From positions 71,296 through 135,295 of the forward strand of contig JBAZYN010000003.1 of NCBI GenBank assembly GCA_041659325.1: a DNA stretch of 64,000 nt, in the 5' to 3' direction. Of the stretch, positions 5,370 through 61,954 are shown piece after piece (positions within the stretch are counted from its first letter, which is position 1; each line of letters opens with the position of its first letter). The position numbers and the translations under genes are program-made. Source of the stretch: Candidatus Shapirobacteria bacterium. GTDB taxonomy: Bacteria > Patescibacteriota > Microgenomatia > UBA12405. The notes beneath the pieces were generated by a model that ran no database searches, was not told the origin of the DNA, and saw only the letters and a program-made list of their open reading frames with translations.

Positions 5370-5726
5370 TTATGCCTGAGTGACAATATCCGCTAGCGCC
5401 TGGCAACCATCTCTTTCTGGACTATTATAATTTGCTCTAAGAATAGGCTGTCCGTCTTTAGTGTGGGAAATAATGGTTACTTCGTTTCCGATCTGTTTAC
5501 GAATTTCGCTTGCGACGGCTTGTCCATCTCGTCTACTAGTGCCCAAATTATCAGCCACAATTACAACTGCCCGTTCAGGAATACGAGGAATTAGCGCTAA
5601 AGCTTTTTCTAGGGAATCTGCAGTTTCACGAACACTGTGACCATTTCTTTCTAAAGTAGCTCTGGTTATTTCTATTTGATCGGGATTACGTTTGATAAGA
5701 TAAGTTTCTGCGTGAGACGGTGACAT
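5370..5726 (-). CDS. hypothetical protein
   Basis: 118-aa ORF, good coding look; no motif recognised. Confidence 0.45.
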   Translation of the reverse strand: MSPSHAETYLIKRNPDQIEITRATLERNGHSVRETADSLEKALALIPRIPERAVVIVADNLGTSRRDGQAVASEIRKQIGNEVTIISHTKDGQPILRANYNSPERDGCQALADIVTQA

Positions 5727-5821
5727 GTATTGGTATGATACAAAAAGATGGTGGTAAAAGCAAGAAAGGGACCGAAGGTGGGGAGAGACAAATAATTTTG
5801 TAATCAGTAATCGGTAAGAAA

Positions 5822-5932
5822 GGTTTAGCCGAATTCGAGAATGAGTCCGTGCAATCCAAATCCCTCTTTAATTCTCCCTTTGACAAGGGAGAACATTGAT
5901 TATTGCCAGGGGAGGGTTTAGCCGAATTCGAG
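5822..5932. repeat. 75-bp insert carrying module aaatccctctttaattctccctttgacaagggagaac, flanked by 18-bp direct repeats ggtttagccgaattcgag (5822-5839 and 5915-5932)
   Basis: The second DR copy is the last 4 codons plus stop (LEFG*) of the permease gene. The first copy is an orphan duplicate distal to the insert. Confidence 0.8.
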
Positions 5933-7000
5933 TAATAAACCAAAAGTAAGAGATACAAAGATAAGAACTGCAAGAAGGAAGGTGACAGGTCGGGGATTGA
6001 TTCTTAGGCGGATGGCGCAAATCATGAGAGCAGAAACATATATGGTGATGGCGCCGGTAAGAGAAATTACCTGGATGAAGGGGACGGAAAATAGAAAAAG
6101 GCTAAGAAATGGAATAGCCAGGGGAAGAATTTGCGAAACAGGTTTTGAGAGACGGAAGTCACGATAAAAGAGCTCACGGAAGACTAAGAGAAAATTGAGA
6201 GAAGCTTCGTAGGTAATTAGAAGTCCAAAAACCGCCAGGCATCTCCCCAACCAGGGAGAGACTTTGAAGATGCCTGTGATCGAATCTACGGACAGAGAAA
6301 AACCGCTAAGCCGAATAACGGAAAAACTGAAAATTAAATAAATTAGTGAAACTAAAAGCAAACCGATAAGGGAGGCCAGGACGGTGTGTTTGGATTTGTC
6401 GGGCTGACCGCGAAAAAGCTCCTCTATTTCGGGAATTATAGTAAAACCACTGAGGGCAAAAATAAGAGAACCGAAAAAAGAAAAATTGGGGACAACCGAG
6501 CTGAGAGCCGGAGGAAGAGCTTGCAGGGCGGCAGAGAGAATTAGAAGAGGAACAAGAAGGATGGCGATGGGGATAATGTTTTCCAGGCGGCGGATGAGAT
6601 CGAAACGGTAGAGATGGCTAAAAGCCAGCAGAATTATGAAAATCACTGAGGCGGCAAAAAGCGGAATATAGGGGAAAAGAATGACTAAAAAATTTGAGAA
6701 AAGCTTGATATAAGCAATGGTGGCACCAAGACCGAGCAGAAGAATATTGAGGGAGGCAAGAGTTTTGAAATTTTTGCCAAGATAGATTTGGGCGTAACCG
6801 GAAAACTGATGATCCCCGGCCGTGTTTAAAACAACTTCGAGATAAAAGTAATTTATGAAACCGGAGACGATGGTGAGAATTCCCAAAAATATCAGAGAAA
6901 AATAAAAATCCGATTTGTAAAAAAGATAAGGCAGGGCGAAAATTCCGGCGCCGACAGTGCCGTAAAATTGGAGAAAGACGGCCTTTGAAAAGCGGGACAT
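5918..7000 (-). CDS. amino acid permease-like membrane transporter
   Basis: 10-12 TM helices; N-terminal GTVGAGIFALPY motif typical of amino-acid transporter families. Confidence 0.6.
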   Translation of the reverse strand: MSRFSKAVFLQFYGTVGAGIFALPYLFYKSDFYFSLIFLGILTIVSGFINYFYLEVVLNTAGDHQFSGYAQIYLGKNFKTLASLNILLLGLGATIAYIKLFSNFLVILFPYIPLFAASVIFIILLAFSHLYRFDLIRRLENIIPIAILLVPLLILSAALQALPPALSSVVPNFSFFGSLIFALSGFTIIPEIEELFRGQPDKSKHTVLASLIGLLLVSLIYLIFSFSVIRLSGFSLSVDSITGIFKVSPWLGRCLAVFGLLITYEASLNFLLVFRELFYRDFRLSKPVSQILPLAIPFLSLFLFSVPFIQVISLTGAITIYVSALMICAIRLRINPRPVTFLLAVLIFVSLTFGLLLEFG

Positions 7001-7400
7001 TGGTTAAGTATAGAGTCTAAAAGTCTTAAAGTCGAAAGTCTAAAGTTTAAAGCCAGCATAAACAAATTAATAATTAACAATTAACAGATTTGTATCTGTA
7101 ATCGGTAATCAGTAATTGGTAATTAGTAATCTGTAAACTGTAATTAGCCTTAGCTGTAAGCGAGTGCACTAAATCCCTCTTAAAATTTCAATTTGTCCCG
7201 CCCGTCGGACAGGCAGGAGCAATCTTAAAACAACTCTACTATTTCAATCCTGTAAGGATTGCTTCGTCGCCTGAAAGGCTTCTCGCAATGACGGGGGCGG
7301 AAGATTGCCACTCCTTCCCTTCAACTATGTTCAGGGCAAGCCCTTCGACAAGCTCAGGATAAACTAGCTCAGGGTCGCAATGACGGGGAAAAGGGAAATT
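7001..7400. repeat. Composite intergenic repeat region (9-mer tandem gtctNaaag units, GTAATN hexamer array, palindromic modules)
   Basis: atagagtctaaaagtcttaaagtcgaaagtctaaag (compare 61960-62080); gtaatcggtaatcagtaattggtaattagtaatctgtaa; block 7300-7390 matches 1-60 and 59940-60000. Confidence 0.8.
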
Positions 7401-7436
7401 AAGAATTTAAAAAAACAAAAAACCAGGAAAGCTCTA

Positions 7437-7560
7437 ATTTCCCTCGAAGCGGCGGTGGCGGCGGTTGAACTCGATGGCGGCGTCGACAATTTTTGAGGGA
7501 TTAAAATCGGGGAAATGATCTTTTTCAAAATAGAATTCGGCATAGGCGTAATTTATAAAA
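7437..7560 (-). pseudogene. Duplicated 3' fragment of uppS (last ~36 codons plus stop)
   Basis: ~108 bp (7441-7548) about 93% identical to 8300-8407; translates to ...YAYAEFYFEKDHFPDFNPSKIVDAAIEFNRRHRRFEGN*. Confidence 0.85.
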
Positions 7561-7567: not shown

Positions 7568-8284
7568 TTAGTGGTGGAAAAACTGACGGACGGAAAGAAG
7601 TAGATAGTTAGTGGCAGCCGAAACGAATAGGATGCCCTGCAATGCCTTGTTTGTGAGGGACTTTTCGCCTTTTTCTGTCCCGGGGGTGTTTGGATCGATT
7701 AGCTTTATACCTTCTTGGGTTTTGAATAGATTATTGGAGTGGCGGAGAGAAAAAACAGCCCTGTCGACGATAAAAAGAAGTGACATCTTGTCGGGGACAC
7801 TTTCGTCCCTTCCGATTAAATCGTAATTTACTCCATATCTTAAATAGCATTTCATTGAATCGAATAAAATACATCTAAGCTGTGTGATATCGGCAGGCGG
7901 TAAACTCAAAATCCCCTTTAGCCCGAGTTTATTAAGAGGAGTACCTTCGACAAACTGCTGTATTCGGGCAATCCGGCTTGTCCCGGGAGCAGTACCCCCA
8001 ACAACCAGATAAGATTGAGCGACTATGGATTGTCTGGCTTGTTCCCCTGCGGTCCTTAACGTCAACTCTTCCAGAGTCCGTAATTTTTTTGCTTCGTTCC
8101 AAGCCTGATGCGGAGTATGGTCCCAAAAATTGTCCTTGGCGACCTTGACCACTACACCTTGGCCACTATCCGGAAGATAAACATTGGTTGATTTAGATTC
8201 GGTAGTGTTGTGATGATGATTCAAGTCAAACGGTAATCCCTGAGTATCAGACGAACGGTCGATCGACATATCTGATGATATCAA
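7568..8284 (-). CDS. hypothetical protein (inserted between uppS and its duplicated 3' end)
   Basis: 238-aa ORF; His-rich N-terminus; no motif recognised; begins 4 bp after the uppS stop. Confidence 0.55.
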   Translation of the reverse strand: MISSDMSIDRSSDTQGLPFDLNHHHNTTESKSTNVYLPDSGQGVVVKVAKDNFWDHTPHQAWNEAKKLRTLEELTLRTAGEQARQSIVAQSYLVVGGTAPGTSRIARIQQFVEGTPLNKLGLKGILSLPPADITQLRCILFDSMKCYLRYGVNYDLIGRDESVPDKMSLLFIVDRAVFSLRHSNNLFKTQEGIKLIDPNTPGTEKGEKSLTNKALQGILFVSAATNYLLLSVRQFFHH

Positions 8285-8290: not shown

Positions 8291-9019
8291 TTAATTTCCC
8301 CCGAAGCGGCGGTGGCGGCGGTTGAACTCGATGACAGCGTCAATGATTTTTGACGGATTGAAATCGGGGAAATGATCTTTTTCAAAATAGAATTCGGCAT
8401 AGGCGTTTTGCCAGGACATGAAGCCCGATAGGCGCTGTTCACCGGAGCTGCGGATAATAAGATCGGGATTGGGATAGGGCTGATTTTGCAGATTGAGATA
8501 TTTGTCGATCAACTGTTGATCGACTTTGTCCGGACTGATTTTGTCGGCGACAATGGCAGAAACAACGCGGGTAATTTCGTCTTTGCCGCCGTAATCGAGG
8601 CATATATTGAAAACATGATCGGTAAAGTGAGCGGTGTCGGCTTCGGCTTTGGCGATAGCTGAGGCCAAACTTTTGGGAATACGGTCTTTACGGCCACGGT
8701 GGATAATTTTTACTTTTTCTTTTTTGGCGGAGTCAATTTGTTTTTTGAGAAAAAGCTCGTAGAGCTTCATGAGATAGGCAATTTCTTCTGCTGACCGGTT
8801 CCAGTTTTCGGTGGAAAAACACCAGACGGAGACGGTGTGAACGCCGATTTCCCAACAAGCTTCGGTAACTTCAACAGCGGCATCAAAACCCTTTTTGTGG
8901 CCTTCGAGGGTATACATGCCCCTGGCTTTGGCCCAACGACGGTTACCATCGGGAATTATGGCGATATGGTGGGGAATTTCTGAATTTTCAGGCAAGGAAA
9001 GATTCCATTTTGATTTCAT
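8291..9019 (-). CDS. uppS: undecaprenyl diphosphate synthase (isoprenyl transferase)
   Basis: HIAIIPDGNRRWA motif; ...RRHRRFGGN C-terminus. Confidence 0.9.
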   Translation of the reverse strand: MKSKWNLSLPENSEIPHHIAIIPDGNRRWAKARGMYTLEGHKKGFDAAVEVTEACWEIGVHTVSVWCFSTENWNRSAEEIAYLMKLYELFLKKQIDSAKKEKVKIIHRGRKDRIPKSLASAIAKAEADTAHFTDHVFNICLDYGGKDEITRVVSAIVADKISPDKVDQQLIDKYLNLQNQPYPNPDLIIRSSGEQRLSGFMSWQNAYAEFYFEKDHFPDFNPSKIIDAVIEFNRRHRRFGGN

Positions 9020-10174: not shown

Positions 10175-10258
10175 TTATAACGAATTACGAATTAATAATT
10201 ACGAATTACGAATTATCAGGTAATCTGTAATTGGTAACCGGTAATCGGTAACCAGCTC
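10175..10258. repeat. GTAATN / AATTAC hexamer tandem array forming a long imperfect hairpin
   Basis: attacgaattaataattacgaattacgaatta...ggtaatctgtaattggtaaccggtaatcggtaacc. Confidence 0.75.
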
Positions 10259-10261
10259 AAT

Positions 10262-10826: not shown

Positions 10827-13156
10827 ACCCGGAAACTATTATCAGCCTGGTGACATCAATAATTGTATTTGCATTTATCGGGACGTTGGTGATCCTGCTT
10901 TTGGGATTTTTGGGGTATTTGCTGGTTTTAAGGTATAGATGGAGAGACAGAGAAGCCAAATCACTTGGGATGGTGACGCTGATGGTAGCAGTACCACAGG
11001 ATAATGAGATAAAAATTGATGCCATGGAGCAGATAATTAGCTCGTTTTCGACCATGTACAAAAGCGCCAAGTTTAAATTTTTGCAAACCTATGTAGCCCA
11101 ACCCAATTTATCGCTAGAGATTGTGGGAACGGCGCAAGACATTAGGTTTTATATTTGCACACCGAAAAAACTTCAGGATTTGGTGGAAAAACAGGTTTAT
11201 AGTGTTTATGCCGGGGCTGACGTAAGACAAGTGGATGAGCCAAATATATTTACTGAGGATGGGAAAGTGGAATATGTATGGTTGGCACTAAAAAAGCTGC
11301 CGCATTACCCTTTGAAAACATATAAGGAAATTCCGACTGACCCAATGGCGGCTGTAACTTCGGCTTTGTCAAAACTAAGTACCGGGGAAACGGTGGCGAT
11401 ACAATTGGTACTTTCGCCGACTGACGGCAGTTGGGCAAAGGCGGGGAGAAGCTTTATCAGCAGTACTAAAAAGTCGGAGGCAAACCCGGAGAAGGCCTCG
11501 TATAAAGTGGATGCAAGACAACTGGAGGCGGTGGAGAATAAGGCGGGAAGACAGGGCTTTGAAACGGTAATAAGGATAGTGTCGTGTGCCCCGAGCAGCG
11601 AGGTTGCGAAATTAAATATTTCGAATATTAAGGCATGCTTTGGCCAATTTGAATCACCGTGGAATAAACTGTCGTCTAAAAAAATGTATCTTAAGTCATT
11701 TTTTGTGGATGATTTTATCTATAAATATCCGGTGGTGTATTGGTTTAAAAACAAGACCATATTGTCGACAGATGAGATTGCATCGATTTTTCATTTTCCC
11801 AACAAATCTATTGAAACACCAAATATTTACTGGCTGAAAGCAAAAAAGGCACCGGCGCCGAATGAGGCTGTGCAGGAGGGGCTGTATATAGGCGACAACG
11901 TGTATCGAGGGATAACTAAAAAAGTGTGTATGACAGCATCGGACCGGCAAAGGCATTTTTATATCGTGGGACAAACAGGGGTGGGTAAATCGTGGCTTTT
12001 GGCAGACATGGCGCTACAAGATATTAAAGCCGGGAAGGGGGTGTGCTTTATTGATCCGCATGATACGTTTGAAAGCATATTGGAGAGGATTCCACCGGAG
12101 CGGGTGGAGGATGTGATTTATTTTGACCCGTCGATGGTGAACCGGCCGATGGGCTTTAATGTGATGGAATGTGAGAGAGAGGACCAGAAAGATTTTGTGA
12201 CTAGCTCGATTATTAACCTAATGTATAAACTGTATGATCCTTATAAAACCGGAATTGTGGGACCTAGGTTTGAACATGCAATAAGAAACATTATGTTGAC
12301 GGTGATGGCAGAGCCGGGGGCGACATTTATCGAGATTGTCCGGTGTCTGACCGATCCGACTTATGTGCAGGCAATGCTACCAAAGGTGAACGACCCGATG
12401 GTAAAAAGATATTGGACTGATCAAATCGCCCAAACTTCGGATTTTCATAAATCGGAGGTGTTGGACTATATCGTGTCAAAATTCGGCCGATTTATTACCA
12501 ACACGATGATGAGAAATATTATCGGGCAGTCGACGTCGTCGTTTAACTTTAGAAAAGCCATGGATGAGGGGAAAATATTGATTATTAATTTGGCCAAAGG
12601 GACAATTGGCGAGGAAAATTCGGCCTTTTTGGGATTGGTTTTAATCCCCAAAATTTTGATTGCGGCCATGAGCCGGCAGGATACGCCAGAGGCGAACCGG
12701 AAGGATTTTTATTTGTATGTGGATGAGTTTCAAAATTTTGCCACCCAGGATTTTGCCGTAATTTTGTCAGAAGCCAGAAAATACCACCTTAACTTGATCG
12801 TGGCCAACCAATTTATTTCACAGATGGATGATGAGGTAAAAAATGCCGTTTTCGGAAACGTAGGTACAATTTCGACTTTTAGGGTGGGAGTGGCCGATGC
12901 AGGGTTCTTGGTGCGGCAGTTTCAGCCGGAATTTAACGAACATGACCTTTTGAACCTGGGAACGGGAGAAATTTATATGAAGACAATGCTTAACGGTGTC
13001 CCCCAGTCACCATTCTCGGTGCGGGTGGCGGCGGTGGAAAAGAAAAAACCGGGGAACCCGAAACTGGCGGAGATGATAAAGCAGCTGTCGTCGATGAAAT
13101 ACGGCAGACCGAGAGAGATTGTGGAAGCGGAAATTGCCAAGAGAGCGAGATTCTAG
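10823..13156 (+). CDS. VirB4/VirD4-superfamily (T4SS/conjugation-type, AAA_10/DUF87-like) P-loop ATPase with an N-terminal TM helix
   Basis: Walker A GQTGVGKS near aa 385, Walker B FYLYVDEFQNF near aa 630, N-terminal TM; this architecture and motif spacing resemble VirB4/TrbE. Confidence 0.6.
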   Translation: MNPETIISLVTSIIVFAFIGTLVILLLGFLGYLLVLRYRWRDREAKSLGMVTLMVAVPQDNEIKIDAMEQIISSFSTMYKSAKFKFLQTYVAQPNLSLEIVGTAQDIRFYICTPKKLQDLVEKQVYSVYAGADVRQVDEPNIFTEDGKVEYVWLALKKLPHYPLKTYKEIPTDPMAAVTSALSKLSTGETVAIQLVLSPTDGSWAKAGRSFISSTKKSEANPEKASYKVDARQLEAVENKAGRQGFETVIRIVSCAPSSEVAKLNISNIKACFGQFESPWNKLSSKKMYLKSFFVDDFIYKYPVVYWFKNKTILSTDEIASIFHFPNKSIETPNIYWLKAKKAPAPNEAVQEGLYIGDNVYRGITKKVCMTASDRQRHFYIVGQTGVGKSWLLADMALQDIKAGKGVCFIDPHDTFESILERIPPERVEDVIYFDPSMVNRPMGFNVMECEREDQKDFVTSSIINLMYKLYDPYKTGIVGPRFEHAIRNIMLTVMAEPGATFIEIVRCLTDPTYVQAMLPKVNDPMVKRYWTDQIAQTSDFHKSEVLDYIVSKFGRFITNTMMRNIIGQSTSSFNFRKAMDEGKILIINLAKGTIGEENSAFLGLVLIPKILIAAMSRQDTPEANRKDFYLYVDEFQNFATQDFAVILSEARKYHLNLIVANQFISQMDDEVKNAVFGNVGTISTFRVGVADAGFLVRQFQPEFNEHDLLNLGTGEIYMKTMLNGVPQSPFSVRVAAVEKKKPGNPKLAEMIKQLSSMKYGRPREIVEAEIAKRARF

Positions 13157-13291
13157 GAAAAAACCCTTCCGTCCCGACTAAAGTCGGGACACCTTCCCTT
13201 GACAGAGCAGGCTAATACAAATTTATAATTCCTTAAGGCGGATGCCTTGCAATTTTTCTTTGGCTTCGATAAGCGGAAAATTTTTTCCTGA
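13157..13291. repeat. 135-bp insert flanked by an 18-bp direct repeat of the VirB4-like gene terminus (caagagagcgagattcta at 13138-13155 and 13292-13309)
   Basis: Contains hairpin gtcccgactaaagtcgggac and a ~60-bp segment (13215-13282) about 80% identical to the 3' end of the recombinase gene at 14182-14245. Confidence 0.75.
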
Positions 13292-13347
13292 CAAGAGAGC
13301 GAGATTCTAAGGGGGAATTTAAGAATTTTATTCGCCTACCCTATTTA

Positions 13348-13734: not shown

Positions 13735-13785
13735 ATTTTTATTTTATTTTTAAATTTATTATTCTTTTAATTTAATGTGGATGGA

Positions 13786-14163
13786 TTACCGGGTGATTTC
13801 TGGTATCGGAATCTGTTCTTTATTGTTGATGACTCTGCCTGAACGCAGTGTGGCTAACGTAGTAACTCGGTCATGACCAGCGACGGTACAAAGATCGACT
13901 TCTGTATCGTTTACGACAAATGCCGCTACGGGGAGAAGACCTAAATCTTGTCTGTGTGCGGCAAGGTAACTATTGGCCATTGTCGTTAGGCCATTTTCTG
14001 CACGGCCACAGAATGTCCTGCCCTTATCTTGGGGTGTGGAAACACCACATAGACCAATATCTTTATCTCTAAGACAGGCTGTCAATTTAAAACAAGCAGG
14101 AGTTGCTAAAATAACCGTTTTAGTTTGGTCGCCCGTTTTTGCTTCTGGTGAACCATTGGGCAT
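13786..14163 (-). CDS. Cys-rich small protein, paralog 2 (start codon 18 nt after the recombinase stop)
   Basis: Paralogous to 13348-13734; co-transcribed with the recombinase. Confidence 0.6.
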   Translation of the reverse strand: MPNGSPEAKTGDQTKTVILATPACFKLTACLRDKDIGLCGVSTPQDKGRTFCGRAENGLTTMANSYLAAHRQDLGLLPVAAFVVNDTEVDLCTVAGHDRVTTLATLRSGRVINNKEQIPIPEITR

Positions 14164-14181
14164 ATATTTTATTAATAAAAT

Positions 14182-15051
14182 TTATAATTCTTTTAATTTG
14201 ATGCCTTTGGATTCTTCTTTGGCTTCGATAAGCTCCATGTATTTTTCGGTGGTGGAAATGCGCTTGTGACCGACAATTTGGGAAACTACGTCGATGGGAA
14301 CGCCGGATTTTAATTGAAAAGCAATAAAAGTGTTTCGCAAGTCATTGACTTTGATACCCTTGATGTCGGCCTTGTTGAAATAGCGATTTAATAAACTTCT
14401 GATGTTACGGGCTAGAAGGTGACGGCCGGTTTTGGTAACAAAAACGCTTTTGGATTTGCTGTTGTAACGACCTTCATCGAGATATCTTTTTAGAGCTGAT
14501 TTGGCGGAATTGTTTAGAGGAACAGTGCGGACACTGTGACTTTCGTATGAGTCGATGATAATTTCATTGTCTTTGATGTTTTCCAACTTTAGATTTTCGA
14601 TTTCTTTGATCCTTAGACCGGCTTGAAGCATCAGCTCGACAATGGCGGTGGACCGGGCATCATTTCGGCAGGCGTCGCGCAGAGACCGGTATTCAATTGG
14701 TTTTAAAATTTTGGGGACATCATTTTCGTACTTGGGATGTTTTATTTCGGTGGAAGGATCGACAGAGATGAGGCCTTCATTTTTTAAAAAGGAAAAGAAA
14801 TTTTTGATGGAGTTTAGTTTTCGACTGACTGACTTGGCGGTATAGCCGTTTTTCATTAAATCTTTTTTGAAGTTGTCAATATCGGTGCCACGAACGGCAT
14901 CAACTCCGGTGATTTTTGACTGGGCCTTTAAAAAGTGGATCAGCTGATTAATATCACCTTTGTAGGCTACAATGGTGTTTGTGGACTTACCTTTTGTTAA
15001 AAGAGATTTGGTAAAAAGATCCAAGGTGGATTCAAGGGATAGATCGGGCAT
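14182..15051 (-). CDS. tyrosine site-specific recombinase, XerC/XerD-like
   Basis: C-terminal catalytic signature HSVRTVPL...LRNTFIAFQLKSGVPIDVVSQIVGHKRISTTEKYMEL (R..HxxR..Y); 289 aa. Confidence 0.85.
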   Translation of the reverse strand: MPDLSLESTLDLFTKSLLTKGKSTNTIVAYKGDINQLIHFLKAQSKITGVDAVRGTDIDNFKKDLMKNGYTAKSVSRKLNSIKNFFSFLKNEGLISVDPSTEIKHPKYENDVPKILKPIEYRSLRDACRNDARSTAIVELMLQAGLRIKEIENLKLENIKDNEIIIDSYESHSVRTVPLNNSAKSALKRYLDEGRYNSKSKSVFVTKTGRHLLARNIRSLLNRYFNKADIKGIKVNDLRNTFIAFQLKSGVPIDVVSQIVGHKRISTTEKYMELIEAKEESKGIKLKEL

Positions 15052-15472: not shown

Positions 15473-15542
15473 TGCGGGGTAGTGTACGGCTGCACGTGAG
15501 GCTCATAATCTCACAGGCCGGGTTCAACTCCCGGCCCCGCAA
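15473..15542 (+). tRNA. tRNA-Met (CAU), initiator-like
   Basis: tgcgggg...ggctcataatctcac...ggttcaactcccggccccgca; closely resembles E. coli tRNAfMet (CGCGGGG...GGGCTCATAACCC...GGTTCAAATCCGGCCCCCGCAACCA); CCA not encoded. Confidence 0.75.
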
Positions 15543-15610
15543 CATTTCACTTGGTAATCGGTAACCAGTAATTGGTAATTGGTAATAAGAAAATGTATCG
15601 GTTTTACTTG

Positions 15611-15639
15611 TTGACAGAAGCGAAAGGCGAAGTTAGAAT
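15611..15639 (+). promoter_or_regulatory. Sigma-70-type promoter (TTGACA, 17 nt, TAGAAT)
   Basis: ttgaca at 15611-15616, 17-nt spacer, tagaat at 15634-15639. Confidence 0.5.
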
Positions 15640-15645
15640 GACTAG

Positions 15646-15716
15646 CGATCTTGGAAACGAGATTTTGCACCCAAATTTTGAAATAGAAAGGTCCTCATTA
15701 ACCTGAGGACTTTTTT
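15646..15716 (+). ncRNA. Candidate small RNA (~70 nt) bounded by a consensus promoter and an intrinsic terminator
   Basis: Predicted TSS ~7 nt after the -10; ends with hairpin gtcctca-ttaacc-tgaggac followed by TTTTTT; no ORF. Confidence 0.35.
15689..15716 (+). terminator. Rho-independent terminator
   Basis: 7-bp GC-containing stem, 6-nt loop, T6 tract. Confidence 0.6.
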
Positions 15717-15719
15717 ATT

Positions 15720-16040
15720 GGAAAATCAAAACCCACTTTTAAATAAAACCCTAACCCTACCCTTTCCCCCACCAAAGGCGGGCAGGCTTGACAGGGCAAG
15801 GGGGAATAAAAATCCAAATCCCTCTTTAATTCTCCCTTTGACCCACCTGCCGGACGAGCTGGTCTTCCTTTGGCCCTCCTACGCCACCGACTTCGCCAAA
15901 GCTACGGCGGGCAAGCAAGGGAGAATTATAAAAATAAAAGAAACTCGATATATTTGGTATAATCACCCTAGTTTTTGGCTCGCCTACGGTAAACCTACGG
16001 CGGGCGAGGCCCTCCCCGTAAGGCTACGGAAGGGCTGGAA
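15720..16040. repeat. Mosaic repeat block upstream of the tRNAs
   Basis: Modules cccttgacagggcaaggg, aaatccctctttaattctccctttgac, cctacgccaccgacttcgccaaagctacggcgggcaag (compare 1-110); includes a TGgTATAAT extended -10 at 15955-15963. Confidence 0.75.
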
Positions 16041-16043
16041 TAT

Positions 16044-16117
16044 GGCAGGGTAGCTCAGCTGGTTAGAGCGTAGCATTCATAACGCTAAGGTCGCGGGTCC
16101 GAGCCCCGCCCCTGCTA
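16044..16117 (+). tRNA. tRNA(CAU), elongator Met or Ile2 (lysidine)
   Basis: ggcagggtagctcagctggttagagc-gtagcattcataacgcta-aggtc-gcgggtccgagccccgc-ccctgct-a; Ile-like backbone. Confidence 0.8.
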
Positions 16118-16202
16118 CAAACAAAACCCACCCGCCCTTCGACAAGCTCAGGGCACCCTCCCTTGAAAAAGGAGGGAAAAGAGGAAAGTTAAAAATTAAT
16201 TA

Positions 16203-16276
16203 GGGCATGTAGCTCAGTTGGTTAGAGCATCGATCTTATAAGTCGAGGGTCCATGGTCCGAGTCCATGCATGCCCA
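16203..16276 (+). tRNA. tRNA-Ile (UAU)
   Basis: gggcatgtagctcagttggttagagc-a-tcgat-cttataa-gtcga-gggtc-catgg-tccgagt-ccatg-catgccc-a; 7-nt anticodon loop cTTATAAa gives anticodon TAT. Confidence 0.65.
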
Positions 16277-17509: not shown

Positions 17510-18720
17510 CCAGGCAGATTGGGAGTTAGAATGCTTTTTGTTTTCGTCCTGTGCTTTTTGGGCCTGGACTCATCAGATCCGGAGAAACCGGATAAACACA
17601 CATCCGACCCACCTGGTGGCTATAAAAAACGCCACCAGGCAGGTCGGGGAACTCGATAGTGCTTGGCCCTCAGGGTCCGAAATTCACCCTAGAGGGCCTC
17701 GGACGCGTGGGCGTCGGTGCTACGGGGTGTAGCAGTGCGTCTGGGCCCAGAGGGTGTTCGACCTATCGACCAACTGGACATCCCAAGGGGGCTGTCGATT
17801 GTGACCGGGGGCGACGGTAAACTCGAACTCATTGTTCGACAACCATCGGTAGGAACACGGTTCCACACCCTCCCACAAAAGCAAGGCCCAATCCTCACCC
17901 GAGCTCCGCGGTAGCGGGGGCAAGTTGACCCGAATGCGGACGCTCCAGGGCACGTGGTGCCGGAAAGAGAAGACCACGCCGGGCCAACCCTCATGGTTGG
18001 GCCTGAATTCACGGGTCTCAACCTCCGTACCGCCGACGAACAAGGTCGCACTCGCGCTGCCCGGGCAGCCCTGGCATAGGACGCCAAGGAAGGAACGGCT
18101 GTTCCTTGGGGGCGGGGGGGGCGGTGGGGTGACCGGGGGGGTCAACGTGACCGGCGGGTTGGTCGGAGTGGCCGTGATCAGCGTCATCGGCGGGGTCGGG
18201 GTGGCCGAAGGGGTGGCCGAGGTCGTGGGCGTGTTGGTCGGGGTGGCCGAAGGGGTGGCCGTGGTCGTGGGGGTCGGCGACGGGGTGGCCGTGCGGGTCG
18301 GGGTACGGGTCGGCATGCAGTGGCGGATGTTCTCCTCCTGGATATTGATGGTGGAGGAATTCGCCACAATGCCATTCGGCCCTTCGAAGCGGATGCTGTA
18401 GACGCCCGGCTGCGCGATCCTCGTGAAGTGGGGGTCCTTCCCGGGTTTGGTGCAGCCTTCGCTGAGCGTGATCGACCGAGAGGAAACGACCTGGCCATCC
18501 CTAATGAGGGACAGAGTACCAGTGACCTTTTCGGTCGAGCATACACGGGCCCACATCGTCAGATCCTCGTAGCAGTCCCACCCTTCGGCGGGAATGGTGA
18601 CGACCGGCGTCTCGGCGGACACGACCGAAGAGTCCCGGAGGGATACTCCCACCAGGACGGCGAGGGCGATGATGCCCAAGAGCAACGCGGCGGACACGAT
18701 CTTTTTCCCGTTCATGAGAT
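17510..18720. other. High-GC (~60-65%) island in a ~42% GC background
   Basis: Abrupt composition shift immediately after the stop at 17507 and before 18720; the antisense strand is full of spurious long ORFs, as is typical for high-GC DNA. Confidence 0.8.
17720..18715 (-). CDS. secreted/membrane-anchored protein with a Pro-Thr-rich linker (high-GC, foreign-looking gene)
   Basis: Signal/TM MNGKKIVSAALLLGIIALAVLVGV; PT linker PTRTPTRTATPSPTPTTTATPSATPTNTPTTSATPSATPTPP...PPPPPPP; C-terminal Cys-containing domain. Confidence 0.7.
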   Translation of the reverse strand: MNGKKIVSAALLLGIIALAVLVGVSLRDSSVVSAETPVVTIPAEGWDCYEDLTMWARVCSTEKVTGTLSLIRDGQVVSSRSITLSEGCTKPGKDPHFTRIAQPGVYSIRFEGPNGIVANSSTINIQEENIRHCMPTRTPTRTATPSPTPTTTATPSATPTNTPTTSATPSATPTPPMTLITATPTNPPVTLTPPVTPPPPPPPRNSRSFLGVLCQGCPGSASATLFVGGTEVETREFRPNHEGWPGVVFSFRHHVPWSVRIRVNLPPLPRSSGEDWALLLWEGVEPCSYRWLSNNEFEFTVAPGHNRQPPWDVQLVDRSNTLWAQTHCYTP

Positions 18721-18888: not shown

Positions 18889-18990
18889 ATGTTTTCTATC
18901 TTGAACCAGGGCCTATTTGACCGAGGCGAGGTTAAAAATTTTGTCATGACAGTTGGCGGATTTGACAAAAATGCTAAAATGGGTTTGGAT
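18889..18990 (-). pseudogene. Degenerate duplicate of the 3' end of the thermonuclease gene
   Basis: Minus-strand translation ...KSANCHDKIFNLASVK* versus the nuc C-terminus ...KSVNCHEKLFDQF*; ttgtcatgacagttggcggatttg versus ttttcatgacagttgacggatttg. Confidence 0.5.
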
Positions 18991-19713: not shown

Positions 19714-20379
19714 TTAAAACTGGTCAAAAAGTTTTTCATGACAGTTGACGGATTTGGTAAAGCCGGCCTGGAGGGCTTCGGCTTCGGAGCAAAACCAACG
19801 GTCGCCTTCGTCCAGGGCGAGCTGAACATTGGAGTAATTGCCGCAGCCATCAAAAAAATATGTCTTTTTGCCGTCTTTGACATTGCCCTTAATAGAACAC
19901 TTGGGATTGGCGGGATTAACAGATTGGAAACAGAGGGGGCCGAAAATACCGATTTTGGTGGCCTTGGCGGCGGCACCGGCTTTTTGGAGACGGGCAGATT
20001 CGATAGAAGCATTTGAGGTATAACGGGCCCAACCGGAGTTGAGCATTAATTCATTGACCAGAGTACCGTCGGGAAGGTAAACCAGGGCTAAAAAACGATT
20101 GTGAGAATCATTAATTGTGCCGACAATTTTGACCTGTTTGCCTTGTAAAAGTGAAGTTAGTTCCGCTTTGGCCTGGTGATAGCCGCATAAACCTTTTTCG
20201 GGAGCATTGATGTTCATGAGGCGGATGGACTGTTTATTTTCCTCAAGGACAATACTGTCGCCATCGATGATTTCGGAGACAGTATAGAGTTTTTGGGGCG
20301 GAATTTGGGAGCGGATAACGAAGAGACCTAAAAGCAGGTTTAAAATGACGGAAATTACAAGAAAGATCCGAGTCATCAT
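19714..20379 (-). CDS. membrane-anchored thermonuclease (SNase-like) with a Cys-containing C-terminal extension
   Basis: N-terminal TM; SNase core ...GDSIVLEENKQSIRLMNINAPE...VGTINDSHNRFLALVYLPDGTLVNELMLNSGWA. Confidence 0.75.
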   Translation of the reverse strand: MMTRIFLVISVILNLLLGLFVIRSQIPPQKLYTVSEIIDGDSIVLEENKQSIRLMNINAPEKGLCGYHQAKAELTSLLQGKQVKIVGTINDSHNRFLALVYLPDGTLVNELMLNSGWARYTSNASIESARLQKAGAAAKATKIGIFGPLCFQSVNPANPKCSIKGNVKDGKKTYFFDGCGNYSNVQLALDEGDRWFCSEAEALQAGFTKSVNCHEKLFDQF

Positions 20380-21628: not shown

Positions 21629-23904
21629 TTTGGCCAGGCGGCGGTGATGAGCATGGCCTCTTTCAGATTATATTTTTTGGCGAGAGTTTGGTAGATATTT
21701 TCGGTGATAAAAGGGATGAAGGGATGAAGAAGCTTGAGAGAAGTAATCATAACGTGGAGAAGGACGGGCAGGGCGTCCGGTCCCCTATTTTTGGTGGATT
21801 CGAGATAAATATCGCAAAAATCATGCCAGAAAAAGTGGTAGAGGTCTTCTGAGGCCTGGCCGAAACGAAAATTATTTAGATTTTTGGTAGTGGATTTGAT
21901 GATTTGGTCGAGTTTGGTGAGGATGGCTTGGTCGGATAAATCCCTCTCGGCTTCGCCGCTTCTCCCTTTGACAAGGGAGATATTTACCGGAGCATCGCCG
22001 AATTTGAATTCGATGAAACGGGCGGCGTTCCAGATTTTGTTGATAAAGTTACGCTGGGCGCGGATTTTGTCTTCGGAGACGACGAAATCAGAGGCGGGGG
22101 CGATGCCGATGACCAGGGACATTCTGAGGGCATCGGTGCCGTATTTTTCGGTCATGGTGAGGGGATCAACCCCATTTCCCTTGGACTTGCTCATTTTTTG
22201 ACCTTTGGAATCGACGACCCGAGAATGAAGATGGACCATTTTGAAGGGAACATCTTTGGCTAAATATAGGCCAAACATGATCATTCTGGCGACCCAGAAG
22301 AAAAGAATATCCCAAAGAGTGTCGAGAACTGAAGTGGGGTAAAAATAGAAAAAATCCGGGGATGATTTTTGCGGATCATCGGGATTGAAACCGAGAGTGT
22401 TTAGAGGCCACTGGCCGCTTAAAAACCAGGTGTCAAAAGTATCGGTTTCCTGCAATAAATGGGTGGACTTGCATTTTGAACAATGCGAAACTTGGTCGAC
22501 GACAAAATCGGTGTCAACCGGGGCGATTAGTGATTGTAGCCCGTTTTTGATTTCTTCATAGGAATATTTGTCTTTTAGATCGGCGTAAAACCCGGAAACT
22601 ATTTCTTGGTCCCGATTTAGGAAGTTAATTTTTATTTGAGGACTGCAGTCCAAACAATACCAGGCGGGAATTTGGGGACCCCAAACAATTTGGCGGCTGA
22701 TATTCCAATCGCGGATATTTTCCATCCAGGTAATAAAAGCTTTTTTGAATCTGGTGGGGAAAAACTTGACCTGTCCCTCTTTGGCGGCGGCAATGGCGGC
22801 CTTGGCTAAAGGATCTATTTTTAGGTACCACTGGGGAGTAACCATGGGCTCGATGGGGCGGTTGCAGCGGTAACAACGGCCGATACGGTGCTGATATTTG
22901 TCGTCTATTTTGACTAACATACCGCGGGATTTCATATCCGCCACCACTTTTTCCCGGGCGGAAGCGACAGTCAGCCCGGCATATGGTCCGGTGAGCTCAT
23001 TTAGACGACCATCAAGACCGATAACCTTTTTGAGAGGTAAATTGTGCCTTTTGGCGGCTTCAAAATCGTTTGGATCGTGAGCGGGGGTGATTTTGACAAC
23101 ACCGGTGCCAAATTCCATATCGACCATATCATCAGCAATTACTTTGACAGTAAAAGGGCCGTTTAGCCCGTCGACGGTGATTTCCTGACCGATGTATTGG
23201 GTATACCGCGTGTCTTTGGGATGGACGGCGACGGCAGTGTCGCCAAACTTTGTTTCGGGGCGGGTGGTGGCCAGAGTGAACGGCCCATACTTCATATAAT
23301 ATAGGCTGGTTGTTTCGTCGACGTAATTGACTTCGAGATTGCTAAAGGCGGTGCCACAGTGAGGACAATAATTGACAATTTTTTCATCACGATAGATAAG
23401 GCCGTCGCGATAGAGCTTTTTGAAGACAGACAGGACATTGTTTACAATCGAGGGCTCCATACTGTAGTGATATCGGGTCCAATCCATGGAGAAACCCAGT
23501 TTTTTCATCTGGAAGACGTTTTGTTGCCGATTTTTTTCGACGAAATCCCAAATCAGCTGATATAGGGTCTGTCTGTCAAAATCAAAACGACTTTTGCCTT
23601 CCTTGGATAATTTTTTTTCGAAAACAAATTGGGTTTCGATGCCGGCATGATCGCCGCCGGGCAGCCATAAGGTGGGATCGCCCAACATGCGGTGATAGCG
23701 GACTAAAATATCTTCGATGGTAAATACGGCATGCCCCATGTGCATGGGATCGTTGGCGTTTGGGAGGGGCAAAATGATGGTGTAGGGTGGGTGGGATTTG
23801 CGAGCCTTTTGAGGATTTTTGGGGACAATCGGGGTGAAGGCGCCTGATTTTTCCCACAGGGAATAGATGTCCTGCTCGTTACTTGGGTCATATGCCTTGT
23901 CCAT
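21625..23904 (-). CDS. valS: valine--tRNA ligase (short form)
   Basis: HMGH motif (PNANDPMHMGHA), GGDHAGIETQ, KMSKSKGN; 759 aa; contains an in-frame repeat-derived insert SLVKGRSGEAERDL. Confidence 0.9.
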   Translation of the reverse strand: MDKAYDPSNEQDIYSLWEKSGAFTPIVPKNPQKARKSHPPYTIILPLPNANDPMHMGHAVFTIEDILVRYHRMLGDPTLWLPGGDHAGIETQFVFEKKLSKEGKSRFDFDRQTLYQLIWDFVEKNRQQNVFQMKKLGFSMDWTRYHYSMEPSIVNNVLSVFKKLYRDGLIYRDEKIVNYCPHCGTAFSNLEVNYVDETTSLYYMKYGPFTLATTRPETKFGDTAVAVHPKDTRYTQYIGQEITVDGLNGPFTVKVIADDMVDMEFGTGVVKITPAHDPNDFEAAKRHNLPLKKVIGLDGRLNELTGPYAGLTVASAREKVVADMKSRGMLVKIDDKYQHRIGRCYRCNRPIEPMVTPQWYLKIDPLAKAAIAAAKEGQVKFFPTRFKKAFITWMENIRDWNISRQIVWGPQIPAWYCLDCSPQIKINFLNRDQEIVSGFYADLKDKYSYEEIKNGLQSLIAPVDTDFVVDQVSHCSKCKSTHLLQETDTFDTWFLSGQWPLNTLGFNPDDPQKSSPDFFYFYPTSVLDTLWDILFFWVARMIMFGLYLAKDVPFKMVHLHSRVVDSKGQKMSKSKGNGVDPLTMTEKYGTDALRMSLVIGIAPASDFVVSEDKIRAQRNFINKIWNAARFIEFKFGDAPVNISLVKGRSGEAERDLSDQAILTKLDQIIKSTTKNLNNFRFGQASEDLYHFFWHDFCDIYLESTKNRGPDALPVLLHVMITSLKLLHPFIPFITENIYQTLAKKYNLKEAMLITAAWPK
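21938..21981. repeat. Palindromic repeat module inserted in frame inside valS
   Basis: aaatccctctcggcttcgccgcttctccctttgacaagggagat; identical 44-mer at 28827-28870 inside tsaD; encodes SLVKGRSGEAERD on the valS strand. Confidence 0.9.
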
Positions 23905-24733: not shown

Positions 24734-25903
24734 ATGGAAATAATCAAAATTAACGACAGTTACGAAGAAATTATTAAAAGGACGGCTGAAACGATAAGGG
24801 GCGGCGGACTGGTGATATTCCCATCGGATACGGTATATATTTTGGCGATGGATCCGACAAATGTTGATGCGACAAAGAAACTTTTGGCGTTTAAAAACCG
24901 CTGGGTGGGAAAGGCAATTTCGGTGGCAGTGGCGGATACTAAAATGGCCAAAGATTATGTAGAACTATCGGAAAACGCTGAAAATATATATGCTAACTTG
25001 CTACCCGGACCATTTACGGTAGTAAGCAAGGGAAAACATAAAATGGCGAGCGGGATTGAGGCGGAAAACGGGACTTTGGGGATAAGAATCCCCGATAACA
25101 AATATATTCACGATTTGGTGACAGCCATTGGGAAACCGGTAACGGCGACATCGGCTAATCTGTCGGGGCGGACACCGCATTATTCTATCGAGAGCTTTTT
25201 GAAAACATTGTCGCAGAAAAAGAGGGACATGATTGATTTGATCGTTGATGCGGGGAAACTGCGGTTTAATAAGCCGTCGACAGTTATTGATGCCACTGAG
25301 CCGGAAATCAAAATTTTGAGGCGAGGCGACCTGATTACTGCTAATTCTAAAACTTTGATATCCAAATCGGAAAAGGAAACGGGGAAGATTGCGGAGTTTA
25401 TATTGAATAAATCCCTAAATCAAAATCTACCCCTATCCCCTCCTTTGACGAAAGGAGGGGCACTGCCATTAGTATTTGGACTGAGTGGAGATTTGGGATG
25501 CGGAAAGACAGTGTTTTCGAGGAGTGTGGGGAAAATATTGGGGGTTAAAGAAAAAATCACTAGCCCGACATTTGTGATTATGAATGAGTATGATATCAGT
25601 CTGAAAGTCCAAAAGTCTGAAAGTCTGAAAGTTGGACAGCCGGTTAGTCTGAAAGTCCAAAAGTCTGAAAGTCTGAAAGCCGGGAAGTTTTTACATTTTG
25701 ATTTGTATAGAATCGGAGGCCAGTTTGAATTGGAAGAAATAAAATTTTGGGAACAGTTCAAACCGGGAACCGTGGCTTGTATTGAGTGGCCGGAAAATAT
25801 GGGAAAGGAAAATTTTGAGAAATTGAAAAAGATGACGAATTATAAGGCAATAAACTTTGAATATGTGAACGAGAGAACAAGAAAGATAAGTTATGAGATG
25901 TAA
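24734..25903 (+). CDS. L-threonylcarbamoyladenylate synthase (TsaC/YrdC domain) fused to tRNA t6A protein TsaE
   Basis: YrdC domain ...VTATSANLSGR...; TsaE P-loop GLSGDLGCGKTVF, SPTF, HFDLYRI; two in-frame repeat insertions in the TsaE half. Confidence 0.85.
   Translation: MEIIKINDSYEEIIKRTAETIRGGGLVIFPSDTVYILAMDPTNVDATKKLLAFKNRWVGKAISVAVADTKMAKDYVELSENAENIYANLLPGPFTVVSKGKHKMASGIEAENGTLGIRIPDNKYIHDLVTAIGKPVTATSANLSGRTPHYSIESFLKTLSQKKRDMIDLIVDAGKLRFNKPSTVIDATEPEIKILRRGDLITANSKTLISKSEKETGKIAEFILNKSLNQNLPLSPPLTKGGALPLVFGLSGDLGCGKTVFSRSVGKILGVKEKITSPTFVIMNEYDISLKVQKSESLKVGQPVSLKVQKSESLKAGKFLHFDLYRIGGQFELEEIKFWEQFKPGTVACIEWPENMGKENFEKLKKMTNYKAINFEYVNERTRKISYEM
25423..25463. repeat. Palindromic module aaatctacccctatcccctcctttgacgaaaggaggggcac inserted in frame in tsaE
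   Basis: Same module opens the Rep135 copies; encodes NQNLPLSPPLTKGGAL just before the TsaE P-loop. Confidence 0.9.
25598..25679. repeat. 9-bp tandem repeat (agtctgaaag/gtccaaaag units) inserted in frame in tsaE
   Basis: Encodes LKVQKSESLKVGQPVSLKVQKSESLKA between EYDIS and GKFLHFDLYR; the same unit family is intergenic at 7003-7050 and 61960-62080. Confidence 0.85.
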
Positions 25904-25904
25904 A

Positions 25905-26000
25905 CCAAATCCCTCTTTAATTCTCCCTTTGACAAGGGAGAACACTACTCTTGTGCGTAAGAACGACTGAATGTAAGAGACGAATTTTCCGCTTGGGCAA
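25905..26000. repeat. Module aaatccctctttaattctccctttgacaagggagaac plus a tail
   Basis: Identical to the module at 5858-5897. Confidence 0.8.
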
Positions 26001-29783: not shown

Positions 29784-29784
29784 T

Positions 29785-30170
29785 CAGTAATCTGTAATTG
29801 GTAATTAAGTCAAAACCCACCCTTTAATTCCCTCCCTTGACCCTCCTACACCATGGCTACGGAGGGGCGAGAGGGAGGGCGGAACATTGCAATCCAAATC
29901 CCTCTAAATCTCCCTTTGACAAGGGAGACTTCAAAAACCCCTCACCCATTCGGGAGCTCCCCTTGACCCGCCTGAGGCGGGTAAACCGGCAGGCAGGCCT
30001 ATCCCCTCCTTTAACCCTCCTACGCCATGGCTACGGAAGGGCGATGGAAAGGGAGAGCACTGCTGATTATCGCGAATGAATAGGGTGTGAGGTGGTTTTG
30101 TATTTATTACCGTAATGATTGCCACGCTACGCTCGCAATGACGCGTGGATCCCAATGACAGTTTGTTGAG
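29785..30170. repeat. Large mosaic repeat block including a partial Rep135 variant (30056-30160)
   Basis: GTAATN hexamers; ccctacaccatggctacggagggg twice; aaatccctctaaatctccctttgacaagggagacttcaaaaacccc (compare 48980); cgcaatgacg. Confidence 0.8.
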
Positions 30171-36826: not shown

Positions 36827-36834
36827 GTTGGTAA

Positions 36835-36965
36835 TTGGTAACCTGTAATTGGTAACTGGTAATTAAGACAGTTAATTTTAACAGGCAGAATGGGGTTATT
36901 CTATGAGAAGATGGAGGACACTTGTAATCAGTAATCGGCAATCAGTAACCTGTAATTGGGAACTG
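36835..36965. repeat. GTAATN hexamer arrays (two blocks)
   Basis: ggtaattggtaacctgtaattggtaactggtaatt ... gtaatcagtaatcggcaatcagtaacctgtaattgggaactgggaatt. Confidence 0.75.
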
Positions 36966-36969
36966 GGAA

Positions 36970-46703: not shown

Positions 46704-46912
46704 CTAAACAGAATCTGCGATCTTTTGTAACCTGTAATTGGTAATCAGTAATTGGTAAAAACCTAGAAGCAACATGAGATTAGAAAATCTATGTATGGGG
46801 TGTAAACATAATTGCTGTGACGGGTTTTTTGGGTGAAAGAATTTACTTTTCCACCGTCCAATTTTGTTAAGGTAGTGTGGAACGATAAGACAAAGCTGGA
46901 AACAACTTTTTT

Positions 46913-58043: not shown

Positions 58044-58145
58044 GCGGAAAAACTTCTTTCGTAAAATACCCGATTGAGTTTGTGGAAAAAATTTCGGAAC
58101 TTTAGAGAGAGATTTTGTAGATTTTTGATTTGATAAAATGAAGAT

Positions 58146-58799: not shown

Positions 58800-58860
58800 A
58801 AAGATTGCCACGTCGTCCTGATTAACATCGAGGACTCCTCGCAATGACGGGTTAGAGAGA
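58800..58860. repeat. gattgccac-hairpin-cgcaatgacgg module
   Basis: aagattgccacgtcgtcctgattaacatcgaggactcctcgcaatgacggg. Confidence 0.75.
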
Positions 58861-58935
58861 GATTTGGGAGGGTGTTGCACCGAATGACCGATCGTGTTAC
58901 ACTGTATCAGTGTACTAGCTTGTTAGTACTGATAT

Positions 58936-61949: not shown

Positions 61950-61954
61950 TATTC

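Follow-up and report, generated by a model that had tools for sequence, protein, structure and literature searches.

How does a gene come to be followed, a short way behind its stop codon, by a second copy of its own last codons? The question is raised by a 64-kb stretch of DNA from a Candidatus Shapirobacteria bacterium (141-kb contig JBAZYN010000003.1, positions 71,296 to 135,295; called the window below), in which the end of an amino-acid permease gene occurs twice, on either side of a 75-nt insert that carries a hairpin-forming repeat module. A preliminary description of the same DNA read this arrangement as the mark of site-specific integration of a miniature, non-autonomous element into a gene 3' end. 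The analysis presented here favours an insertion-duplication scar, left when DNA of a related lineage recombined at the locus through an anchor of homology and independently of any integrase, a reading to which we assign a probability of roughly 0.5. It is carried by the duplication itself, by its derived state, by its recurrence and enrichment at gene ends, by the lack of a shared motif or recombinase and by the allele-like differences between the copies.

The duplicated permease end and its insert

The 18-mer GGTTTAGCCGAATTCGAG has exactly two matches in the 64 kb, at 5822-5839 and 5915-5932, as had been described, with no further site at up to three mismatches; none of 100 shuffled windows yielded two matches, and the two copies are identical at 18/18 positions. 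The permease gene (5918-7000, minus strand; Pfam Trp_Tyr_perm; NCBI MFA5828734.1, locus tags WC841_) is intact and encodes 360 amino acids. Its functional end lies in the proximal copy (5915-5932, minus strand), which consists of CTCGAATTCGGC TAA ACC and reads on the minus strand CTC GAA TTC GGC TAA ACC, that is, L-E-F-G-stop plus 3 nt. The assignment of this copy to the LEFG-stop of the permease therefore holds, with the three nucleotides ACC to be added; as counted here, it is composed of the last 15 coding nt of the permease, the stop and 3 nt. The distal copy (5822-5839, minus strand) is followed by TTTCTTACCG..., which bears a weak resemblance to the flank found directly after the permease stop in relatives and for that reason suggests that the distal copy and the DNA behind it may represent the older context.

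The insert between the copies (5840-5914) contains no open reading frame (ORF); with its 75 nt it is miniature and non-coding. The claim that it carries only the repeat module is correct for the 37-nt module AAATCCCTCTTTAATTCTCCCTTTGACAAGGGAGAAC (5858-5894, plus strand) and not for the 18 nt and 20 nt on its two sides, which are unique in the window. The module folds into a hairpin of 9-10 bp with a 4-nt loop (5872-5893; arms 5872-5880 and 5885-5893). Read along the gene strand, the insert is made up of ~20-21 nt of unique sequence, the 37-nt hairpin module and a module-like end of ~17-18 nt, and this end, GGATTGCACGG..., resembles the truncated start of the repeat family GATTGCCACG... (GATTGC(C)ACG-type). 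The inserted block as a whole measures 93 bp, namely the 75 nt of repeat DNA and the second copy of the last codons of the permease. An inverted-repeat search of 5800-5950 returned only the internal hairpin and the palindromic CGAATTCG within the 18-mer, and no terminal inverted repeats. As assembled, the junction reads ...GGACTCATT, CTCGAATTCGGCTAAACC and TTTCTTACC in direct succession. An empty or excised allele would read ...TTACTCGAATTCGGCTAAACC joined directly to TTTCTTACCG, an outward-facing excision junction would read ...GGACTCATT joined to CTCGAATTCGGCTAAACCCTCCCC, and an allele in the donor state would read GGCTAAACCCTCCCCTGGCAATAATCAATG...GGATTGCACGGACTCATT, followed by sequence other than CTCGAATTC.

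The distal copy is preceded by a heptamer array, (GTAATNN)x3 (5796-5817), which lies within the upstream region of the next gene; an array of the same kind precedes the distal permease-end copy in one related locus, L086. Behind the array lies an older, decayed relic of permease 3' coding sequence (ATTTGTCTCTCCCCACCTTCGGTCCCT, ~5767-5795, minus strand), which is positionally homologous to copy 2 of L086 and whose local alignment scores with the permease ends of L083 and L086 were reached by 0-1 of 2000 shuffles. Given this decayed third relic, the permease end has been hit at least twice, which points to an earlier round of the same process.

Reproduction of the junction was also sought in an independent Logan assembly of SRR18595301 (L081). 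It was obtained in part: L081 reproduces the junction between the permease stop and the insert and breaks inside the repeat module, short of the second 18-mer. This contig starts and ends in repeats and spans both copies of neither of the pairs concerned. Exact look-ups of uppS, of the 118-aa gene downstream of the permease and of the 251-aa gene at the edge returned nothing on record.

The permease locus in relatives

A metagenome contig scan and a protein search gave five orthologous permease loci (L082-L086) with 70-83% protein identity. Four of them (L082, L083, L084 and L085) have the same permease end and carry neither the module, nor the remainder of the 75-nt insert, nor a second gene-end copy, and because insert and duplication are thus both lacking at four orthologous loci, the 93-bp block is derived. 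The comparison with insert-free relatives that had been proposed is in this way answered by empty sites, known from other species only, and the contrary observation that had been named, an ancestral duplication of the 18-mer without an insert, was not seen in L082-L085. In L082, L083 and L084 nothing stands between uppS and the permease; the arrangement is compact in L083 and L084, where 26-nt spacers separate uppS, permease and dnaG. L082 has the same end, ...GAATTCGGATAAACC (TAAACC), followed directly by a Fic (SoFic-like) gene, and L085 has a different neighbour. The interval between permease and dnaG thus varies, being empty in L083 and L084, occupied by Fic in L082 and, in the window, by a 118-aa receiver-domain-like gene (5370-5726, minus strand).

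The fifth locus, L086, has a permease-end duplication of its own, in which 50 nt (1117-1166 and 1258-1307) surround 91 nt of hairpin module and heptamers. This duplication arose independently at the same permease gene. The species of L086 and of a further relative, L087, are 83-89% identical to the organism of the window, and their scar boundaries and cargo differ from those found there.

Recurrence and enrichment at gene ends

The architecture had been reported to recur at the VirB4-like, uppS and nuc genes, and it does; xerD and a 632-aa gene join the list, so that at least six sites in the window are affected (permease, uppS, VirB4/TraD-like, xerD, nuc and the 632-aa gene). The uppS relic (7434-7549, minus strand) spans 38 codons and TAG, is 116 nt long and 93% identical to 8291-8406, and lies downstream of an ORFan, gene X (7568-8284, 238 aa). 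At nuc, which encodes an SNase, the functional end (19722-19761) and a relic (18930-18969), both on the minus strand, share 40 nt at 85% identity and flank a 220-aa ORFan on the opposite strand. The end of the 632-aa gene (60051-60075, minus strand) is followed by relics of 14 nt (58852-58865) and 25 nt (58102-58126), which are separated by racemase and TrpR-like genes and by a GNAT gene.

In a scored scan, six of the 65 ORFs of the window and two of 1020 elsewhere had their own 3' end, as far as the stop codon, copied downstream (Fisher p = 9e-7). The background consisted of 80 other Patescibacteria loci (1.18 Mb) taken from GTDB representatives by a uppS search, the best match of which was 47% identical and of no help with synteny. 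Control comparisons with internal segments, gene starts and upstream DNA gave 0-1 matches. Both background matches come from Peribacteria and proved genuine, with module-only inserts: in L073 a 69-nt repeat (12056-12124 and 12275-12343) surrounds a 150-nt repeat-module insert behind a stop codon, and in L013 a 32-nt repeat (757-788 and 834-865) surrounds a 45-nt hairpin-module insert, likewise behind a stop codon. Altogether, assemblies showing the architecture outside the window are L086 (ENA ERZ27250602), L087 (GCA_964517085.1), L088 (ERZ27248961), L013 and L073.

With regard to what the sites have in common, the repeats in the window measure 18, 18, 25, 36, 40, 56 and 116 nt, and those at the six window genes and in L013, L073, L086 and L087 share no common core, only the stop codon, and neither junction has a motif. 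In 9 of 10 pairs the similarity runs as far as the stop codon or up to 5 nt past it (in nuc it ends at -8), and the inner limit is arbitrary. A shared TAAACC insertion motif was also considered and rejected, as it follows 3 of the 65 stop codons, in addition to those in L082 and L087, which does not significantly exceed the chance expectation. Cargo at different sites is unrelated, comprising a hairpin module, one ORFan gene, a pair of small Cys-rich genes, a 220-aa ORFan, a GNAT gene, and a racemase with a TrpR-like gene. A Pfam scan of 60 window ORFs found a single recombinase, the chromosomal XerD, and no transposase. No recombinase is encoded by any insert; apart from the 75-nt one, their products are ORFans, GNAT, a racemase and a TrpR-like protein. 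The gene for XerD itself has a 3' end that is among the duplicated targets, and XerD is a conserved chromosomal protein, with hundreds of orthologs at ~80% identity and conserved DivIC-xerD-VirB4 synteny.

The hairpin module itself is a passenger, a member of a genome-wide mosaic family of intergenic repeats, and not the agent of the duplication, because around six further members of this family in the window the best flanking repeats are 6-10 nt long, which is the random level. An identical copy of AAATCCCTCTTTAATTCTCCCTTTGACAAGGGAGAAC is found at 25907-25943, the hairpin core occurs six times in the window, always on the plus strand, and the window has more than 20 repeat families. An Rfam scan of the window returned three tRNAs only and no family for the module. 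A role as canonical intrinsic terminator was rejected, the gene strand having no T-run and the plus strand just a weak pattern match.

The xerD/VirB4 locus

The most informative locus of the window is the one in which scars of two genes meet. The end of the VirB4/TraD-like ATPase gene (13138-13155, plus strand) has an 18-nt copy at 13292-13309, and between the two lies a 56-nt relic of the xerD end (13219-13274), which encodes ...GIRLKEL, matching relatives. The functional xerD end (14178-14233, minus strand) and a middle relic of 36 nt (13752-13787) flank a 125-aa Cys-rich gene, and a paralogous 128-aa gene follows. The order is therefore the VirB4 end, 63 nt with a hairpin, the xerD-end relic, a 17-nt filler, the 18-nt VirB4-end copy, a different spacer, the two small genes and the functional xerD end. 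The filler (13275-13291, GGAAAATTTTTTCCTGA) is near-palindromic and takes up precisely the interval from the xerD-end relic to the VirB4-end copy; a junction footprint of the joining reaction is one possible explanation for it.

The xerD relic and the VirB4 18-mer copy stand head to head and, together with the intact VirB4 end, rebuild a convergent VirB4/xerD junction. In two relatives (L090 and L091) VirB4 and xerD are indeed convergent, with overlapping ends and no insert. The first part of the series is a fossil of the ancestral convergent junction, and the second part is the junction of a different arrangement. Exactly this order results if a foreign allele recombines once, by homology within xerD and illegitimately at its other end; neither a target-site duplication nor an att-site model produces it. 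Tandem segmental duplication explains the middle xerD relic and the paralogous 125-aa and 128-aa genes reasonably well; for the focal pair it was rejected, the 75 nt having no second copy. L087 (~5789-5854 and 6692-6757) and L088 have 66 nt of the xerD end in two copies, with a 261-aa gene in between, and this represents an independent event.

Divergence between the copies

The differences between the copies bear on where they evolved. Over seven pairs, 16 of the codon differences are synonymous and 12 non-synonymous, and third positions account for 20 of 35 substitutions (p = 0.003). None of the seven tallied relics has a frameshift or a premature stop, and in six the stop codon is at the same place; the middle xerD relic (13752-13787), which is outside this tally, has a premature stop. 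In the young pairs the differences are solely synonymous or exchanges among TAA, TAG and TGA (4/4 in L086, 3/3 in L087, 5/5 in L073, 4/4 in L013, 1/1 in the 632-aa gene and 1/1 in VirB4), and because of this the scars look like products of recombination between lineages. The pairs are most simply read as two alleles of a gene end, each of which would have been shaped within a functioning gene; the same synonymous pattern could result if a copy made in place was followed by allelic replacement. Compared with the orthologs, the two copies score the same to within 1-4 nt, which does not tell the native copy from the other. The allelic origin of the focal pair we infer by analogy with the other pairs.

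Favoured mechanism and rival explanations

If the focal feature is the scar of homology-anchored recombination, the pathway, the donor and the order of events would be as follows. In the ancestral state the next gene started within ~26 nt of the permease stop. The incoming DNA, from a related lineage and taken up by competence or conjugation, would have contained this permease as well, but with other DNA downstream of it, in this case the hairpin repeat module. One of its ends would pair by ordinary homology inside the conserved gene, and the other would be joined a few codons ahead of the resident stop, either illegitimately or at a stretch of very short homology, a process known as homology-facilitated illegitimate recombination (HFIR); for the larger, kilobase inserts, Campbell-type single-crossover integration of a circularised fragment would be the counterpart. 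The resulting order would be the gene, the imported 3' end, the imported downstream DNA, the resident 3' end as a relic and the resident downstream DNA, and repeated events at the same gene end would stack relics. Similarity would stop at the stop codon because the sequences of the two lineages cease to be homologous there, the arbitrary inner boundary would account for lengths from 18 to 116 nt, and the scar would be tolerated because the gene stays intact. Natural competence is a property of Patescibacteria, which have also kept genes for homologous recombination (PMC10633639; PMC12455944).

Several observations weigh against this reconstruction. No donor-state locus, with the permease followed by this module and no duplication, is present among the five orthologs, and the closest strain in the database has 83% protein identity. 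Within a genome, the two copies resemble each other more than either resembles any available ortholog, so that the donor must have been very closely related, or the functional copy was later exchanged by allelic replacement. The focal pair, identical at 18/18 positions, carries no allele information. Furthermore, 18 nt is below the usual length for a RecA-dependent crossover and a 93-bp circle is physically implausible; small inserts would therefore need a route through linear DNA and illegitimate joining, or would be remnants of larger ones. Both 18-nt cases, permease and VirB4, are equal in length. In a genome that is ~90% coding, random donor breakpoints should often leave gene fragments, yet all cargo units are complete genes with just 0-39 nt of flank, which hints at selection or at a more precise mechanism. 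Finally, two more distant Shapirobacteria (L091 and L092; 34 ORFs) have no scars, which suggests something specific to this clade.

Part of this evidence would suit a duplication made in place, by the filling-in of staggered breaks ~18 nt apart, by template switching at the hairpin or by microhomology-mediated break repair, where only insertions that regenerate the gene end would survive in a compact genome and synonymous differences would come later, through allelic replacement from relatives. The identity of the focal copies, the equally exact 18 nt of the VirB4 pair, the stable hairpin in the insert and the closeness of copies within a genome all speak for it, and so do the tiny ancestral spacers (-4 to +26 nt), owing to which a tolerated insertion must sit at the stop codon. 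However, a drifting relic should show non-synonymous changes, and the young pairs have 18 synonymous or stop-preserving differences and none that is non-synonymous. Repeat lengths elsewhere range from 25 to 116 nt, no comparable repeat flanks the six other copies of the module family, the window has no transposase, and simple target duplication does not produce a VirB4 copy adjoining an xerD relic. In sum, duplication in place seems unlikely to us. Site-specific integration, in the form of a miniature non-autonomous element whose attP mimics the permease terminus and which depends on a recombinase in trans (e.g. host XerD or an integrase encoded elsewhere), appears somewhat less probable again. 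The derived insertion, the duplicated gene terminus and its recurrence stand as the preliminary description had them; the architecture is that of attL, element and attR with the gene reconstituted, relatives have empty sites and a tyrosine recombinase is present in the window. Moreover, the successive relics behind the permease, xerD and 632-aa genes recall tandem islands that share an att site, the cargo is made up of compact and whole genes, and a replacement 3' end borne by an element would also show synonymous differences only. What lacks support is the integration machinery: no insert has a recombinase and the only one in the window is the conserved chromosomal XerD, at least six target sequences lack a common core, with repeats of 18 to 116 nt and mutually unrelated inserts, and the module is not the cause, given that flanking repeats are lacking at its other copies. 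Nor does the 75-nt insert seem to have a defined terminus on its right, where it appears to be cut off within a repeat module.

The remaining rival is an assembly artefact, in which co-existing strains with and without the insert would have been merged so that both gene-end alleles stand in tandem. The source is a metagenome-assembled genome, the copies are allele-like, and L081 starts and ends in repeats without spanning both copies of either pair. Nevertheless, the 18-nt repeat is shorter than any assembly k-mer, so that the junction k-mers must exist in the reads; there are no Ns and no coverage-type breaks, L081 confirms the junction of stop and insert, and the same architecture is found in five unrelated assemblies (L086, L087, L088, L013 and L073). 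An artefact is thus very improbable, and a small residue of probability, larger than its share and smaller than that of site-specific integration, is left for further readings not listed here.

Implications

A wider and doubtful generalisation of homology-anchored recombination would be that Shapirobacteria and, sporadically, other Patescibacteria regularly capture DNA without an integrase behind the stop codons of conserved genes, with the 3' end of the gene serving as a portable homology arm. The captured material would be ORFan genes, defence-type genes and repeat modules, and the unit of gene-end copy and cargo could be excised and re-targeted to the same gene in relatives by homologous recombination after DNA uptake. 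If this were true, it would constitute a functional analogue of integron or tRNA-island capture that has no dedicated recombinase and leaves dated relics. On the favoured reading itself, if it is right, the scars would be a readable record of DNA gain by an ultra-small, compact genome of the candidate phyla radiation (CPR), in which new genes and repeat modules enter at housekeeping 3' ends through recombination with relatives and without mobile-element enzymes, and the relic of each event would be datable from its decay. A downstream copy of a gene's own terminal codons would also provide a simple bioinformatic marker of DNA gained recently and of exchange among lineages of uncultivated bacteria, and the reading would explain variable cassettes at fixed places between conserved genes. 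It would furthermore call for caution in annotating such repeats as att sites of integrative elements, and the ubiquitous mosaic repeat modules, passengers that are sometimes in frame in genes, would be separated from the process that makes the duplications.

Cargo and repeats elsewhere in the window

Some of the cargo deserves a description of its own. Gene X was considered as a member of a mobile cargo family and rejected, no homolog but itself being found among 5.8 billion proteins; it has no match in Pfam, NCBIfam, PADLOC, PHROGs or PDB. At 7434-7460 the uppS relic contains what looks like the original terminator, a hairpin, GGGAAA-TTAGAGC-TTTCC, which overlaps the stop codon and is followed by TGGTTTTTTGTTTTTTT, a T-run (the structure was read by eye and is absent from the terminator scan list). 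Between the functional uppS end and gene X there is no structure of this kind, so that gene X is probably co-transcribed with uppS and terminated at the relic. The DNA stacked behind the 632-aa gene is compositionally foreign: the GNAT acetyltransferase gene (58146-58760) has 31.5% GC, compared with 44% for the window, and the neighbouring TrpR-like and racemase genes have 38-39%.

Repeats also occur inside conserved genes. An identical 44-nt module is in frame at 21938-21981, in a linker of a LeuRS-like ORF where it encodes ISLVKGRSGEAERDL, and at 28827-28870, in TsaD. In the TsaE part of a Sua5-TsaE fusion, a hairpin module (25405-25460) adds ~10 aa and an 8-mer array (25590-25695) adds ~22 aa (DISLKVQKSESLKVGQPV...). 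L091 and L092 are without these in-frame insertions, and the in-frame modules resemble Rickettsia palindromic elements. Arrays of the GTAATNN heptamer or of the octamer AGTCTAAA stand upstream of many gene starts (5796-5817, 7094-7146, 10212-10261, 15550-15588, 29772-29807, 36830-36972 and 46719-46768; also 6998-7037 and 61947-62072). They recall the TAACTGA heptamers reported from intergenic regions of Beggiatoaceae (PMC4679880), and an analogous TCAGCAC array lies ahead of the permease of L083. Heptamer arrays and mosaic repeat modules are also found between the three tRNA genes at 15473-16276. A 331-aa ORF (17720-18715) is a strong compositional outlier with 64.7% GC, G-rich repeats of 12/18-nt periodicity (GGTCGGGGTGGCCGAAGGGGTGGCCG...) and no Pfam match. 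Within a 304-aa ORF, also without a Pfam match, a 159-nt unit is present three times in tandem (47444-47920), the later units being 87% and 69% identical to the first.

Comparison with known systems

A literature search returned no description of gene-end duplications flanking repeat modules in Patescibacteria. The 37-nt module resembles REP/BIME, BOX and Rickettsia palindromic elements (RPE) in being short, hairpin-forming, mosaic, multi-copy and mostly extragenic, with some copies in frame in genes. Duplications of gene termini of at least 18 bp are not known from these families, and no RAYT or IS200-IS605-type transposase is encoded among the 60 window ORFs. A miniature inverted-repeat or other transposon with an 18-bp target-site duplication was rejected as a general rule on account of the lack of terminal inverted repeats and the lack of a fixed-length duplication at other copies of the module. 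Tn7-like elements that target attTn7 insert immediately behind the stop of a conserved gene such as glmS, which stays intact; they make a 5-bp duplication and carry tnsABCD(E), and nothing comparable is found in the window. An integron cassette array was likewise rejected, there being no IntI and the cassette boundaries being gene-end copies and not a shared attC-like repeat. For the uppS pair, a diversity-generating retroelement does not apply, as transitions and transversions affect all bases and at most one of eight mismatches involves a coding-strand A in either copy; there is no reverse transcriptase in the window, where the only RVT_3 match is an RNase H.

The closest formal analogue is the insertion of e14 and phage 21 in icd of E. 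coli. In both cases the insert lies in the 3' end of a housekeeping gene, which is kept whole by a replacement 3' end, and direct repeats flank the insert, one of them forming the functional gene end. The displaced original 3' end persists downstream as a fragment, at icd the C-terminal pseudogene icdC, and the copies differ mainly synonymously or conservatively (PMC13626634). The prophage e14, however, is 15 kb long, encodes an integrase of its own and uses a defined att core, whereas the inserts described here measure 75 nt to ~1 kb and occur at six genes or more, with repeats of variable length; neither the insert nor the 60 window ORFs supply a cognate recombinase, and the sites have no common core.

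Campbell-type integration and HFIR are similar in that heterologous DNA comes to be flanked by a duplicated homologous segment of variable length with no junction motif (PMC3240628), and in that the gene stays functional only where the fragment includes the gene end. In E. coli conjugation, most integrations with one-sided homology are single crossovers that duplicate 109-950 bp of the homologous segment (PMC3240628). These processes are known mainly from laboratory plasmid crosses with selectable markers, with duplications usually of at least 100 bp, whereas in the window they would act naturally and recurrently and leave scars of 18-116 nt at many housekeeping gene ends, some with inserts too small for circles. 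The minimal mobile elements of Neisseria are comparable to the variable permease-dnaG interval, being variable cassettes between conserved genes, exchanged by homologous recombination after transformation (PMC3787668), but they leave no duplication of the end of the flanking gene. In the scars, the duplicated segment is homologous to its target, variable in length and limited on the outer side where homology ends, as in insertion-duplication. The scars may be of a known kind, insertion-duplication at gene ends, and their pattern may mark a regular route by which CPR genomes acquire genes and repeats.

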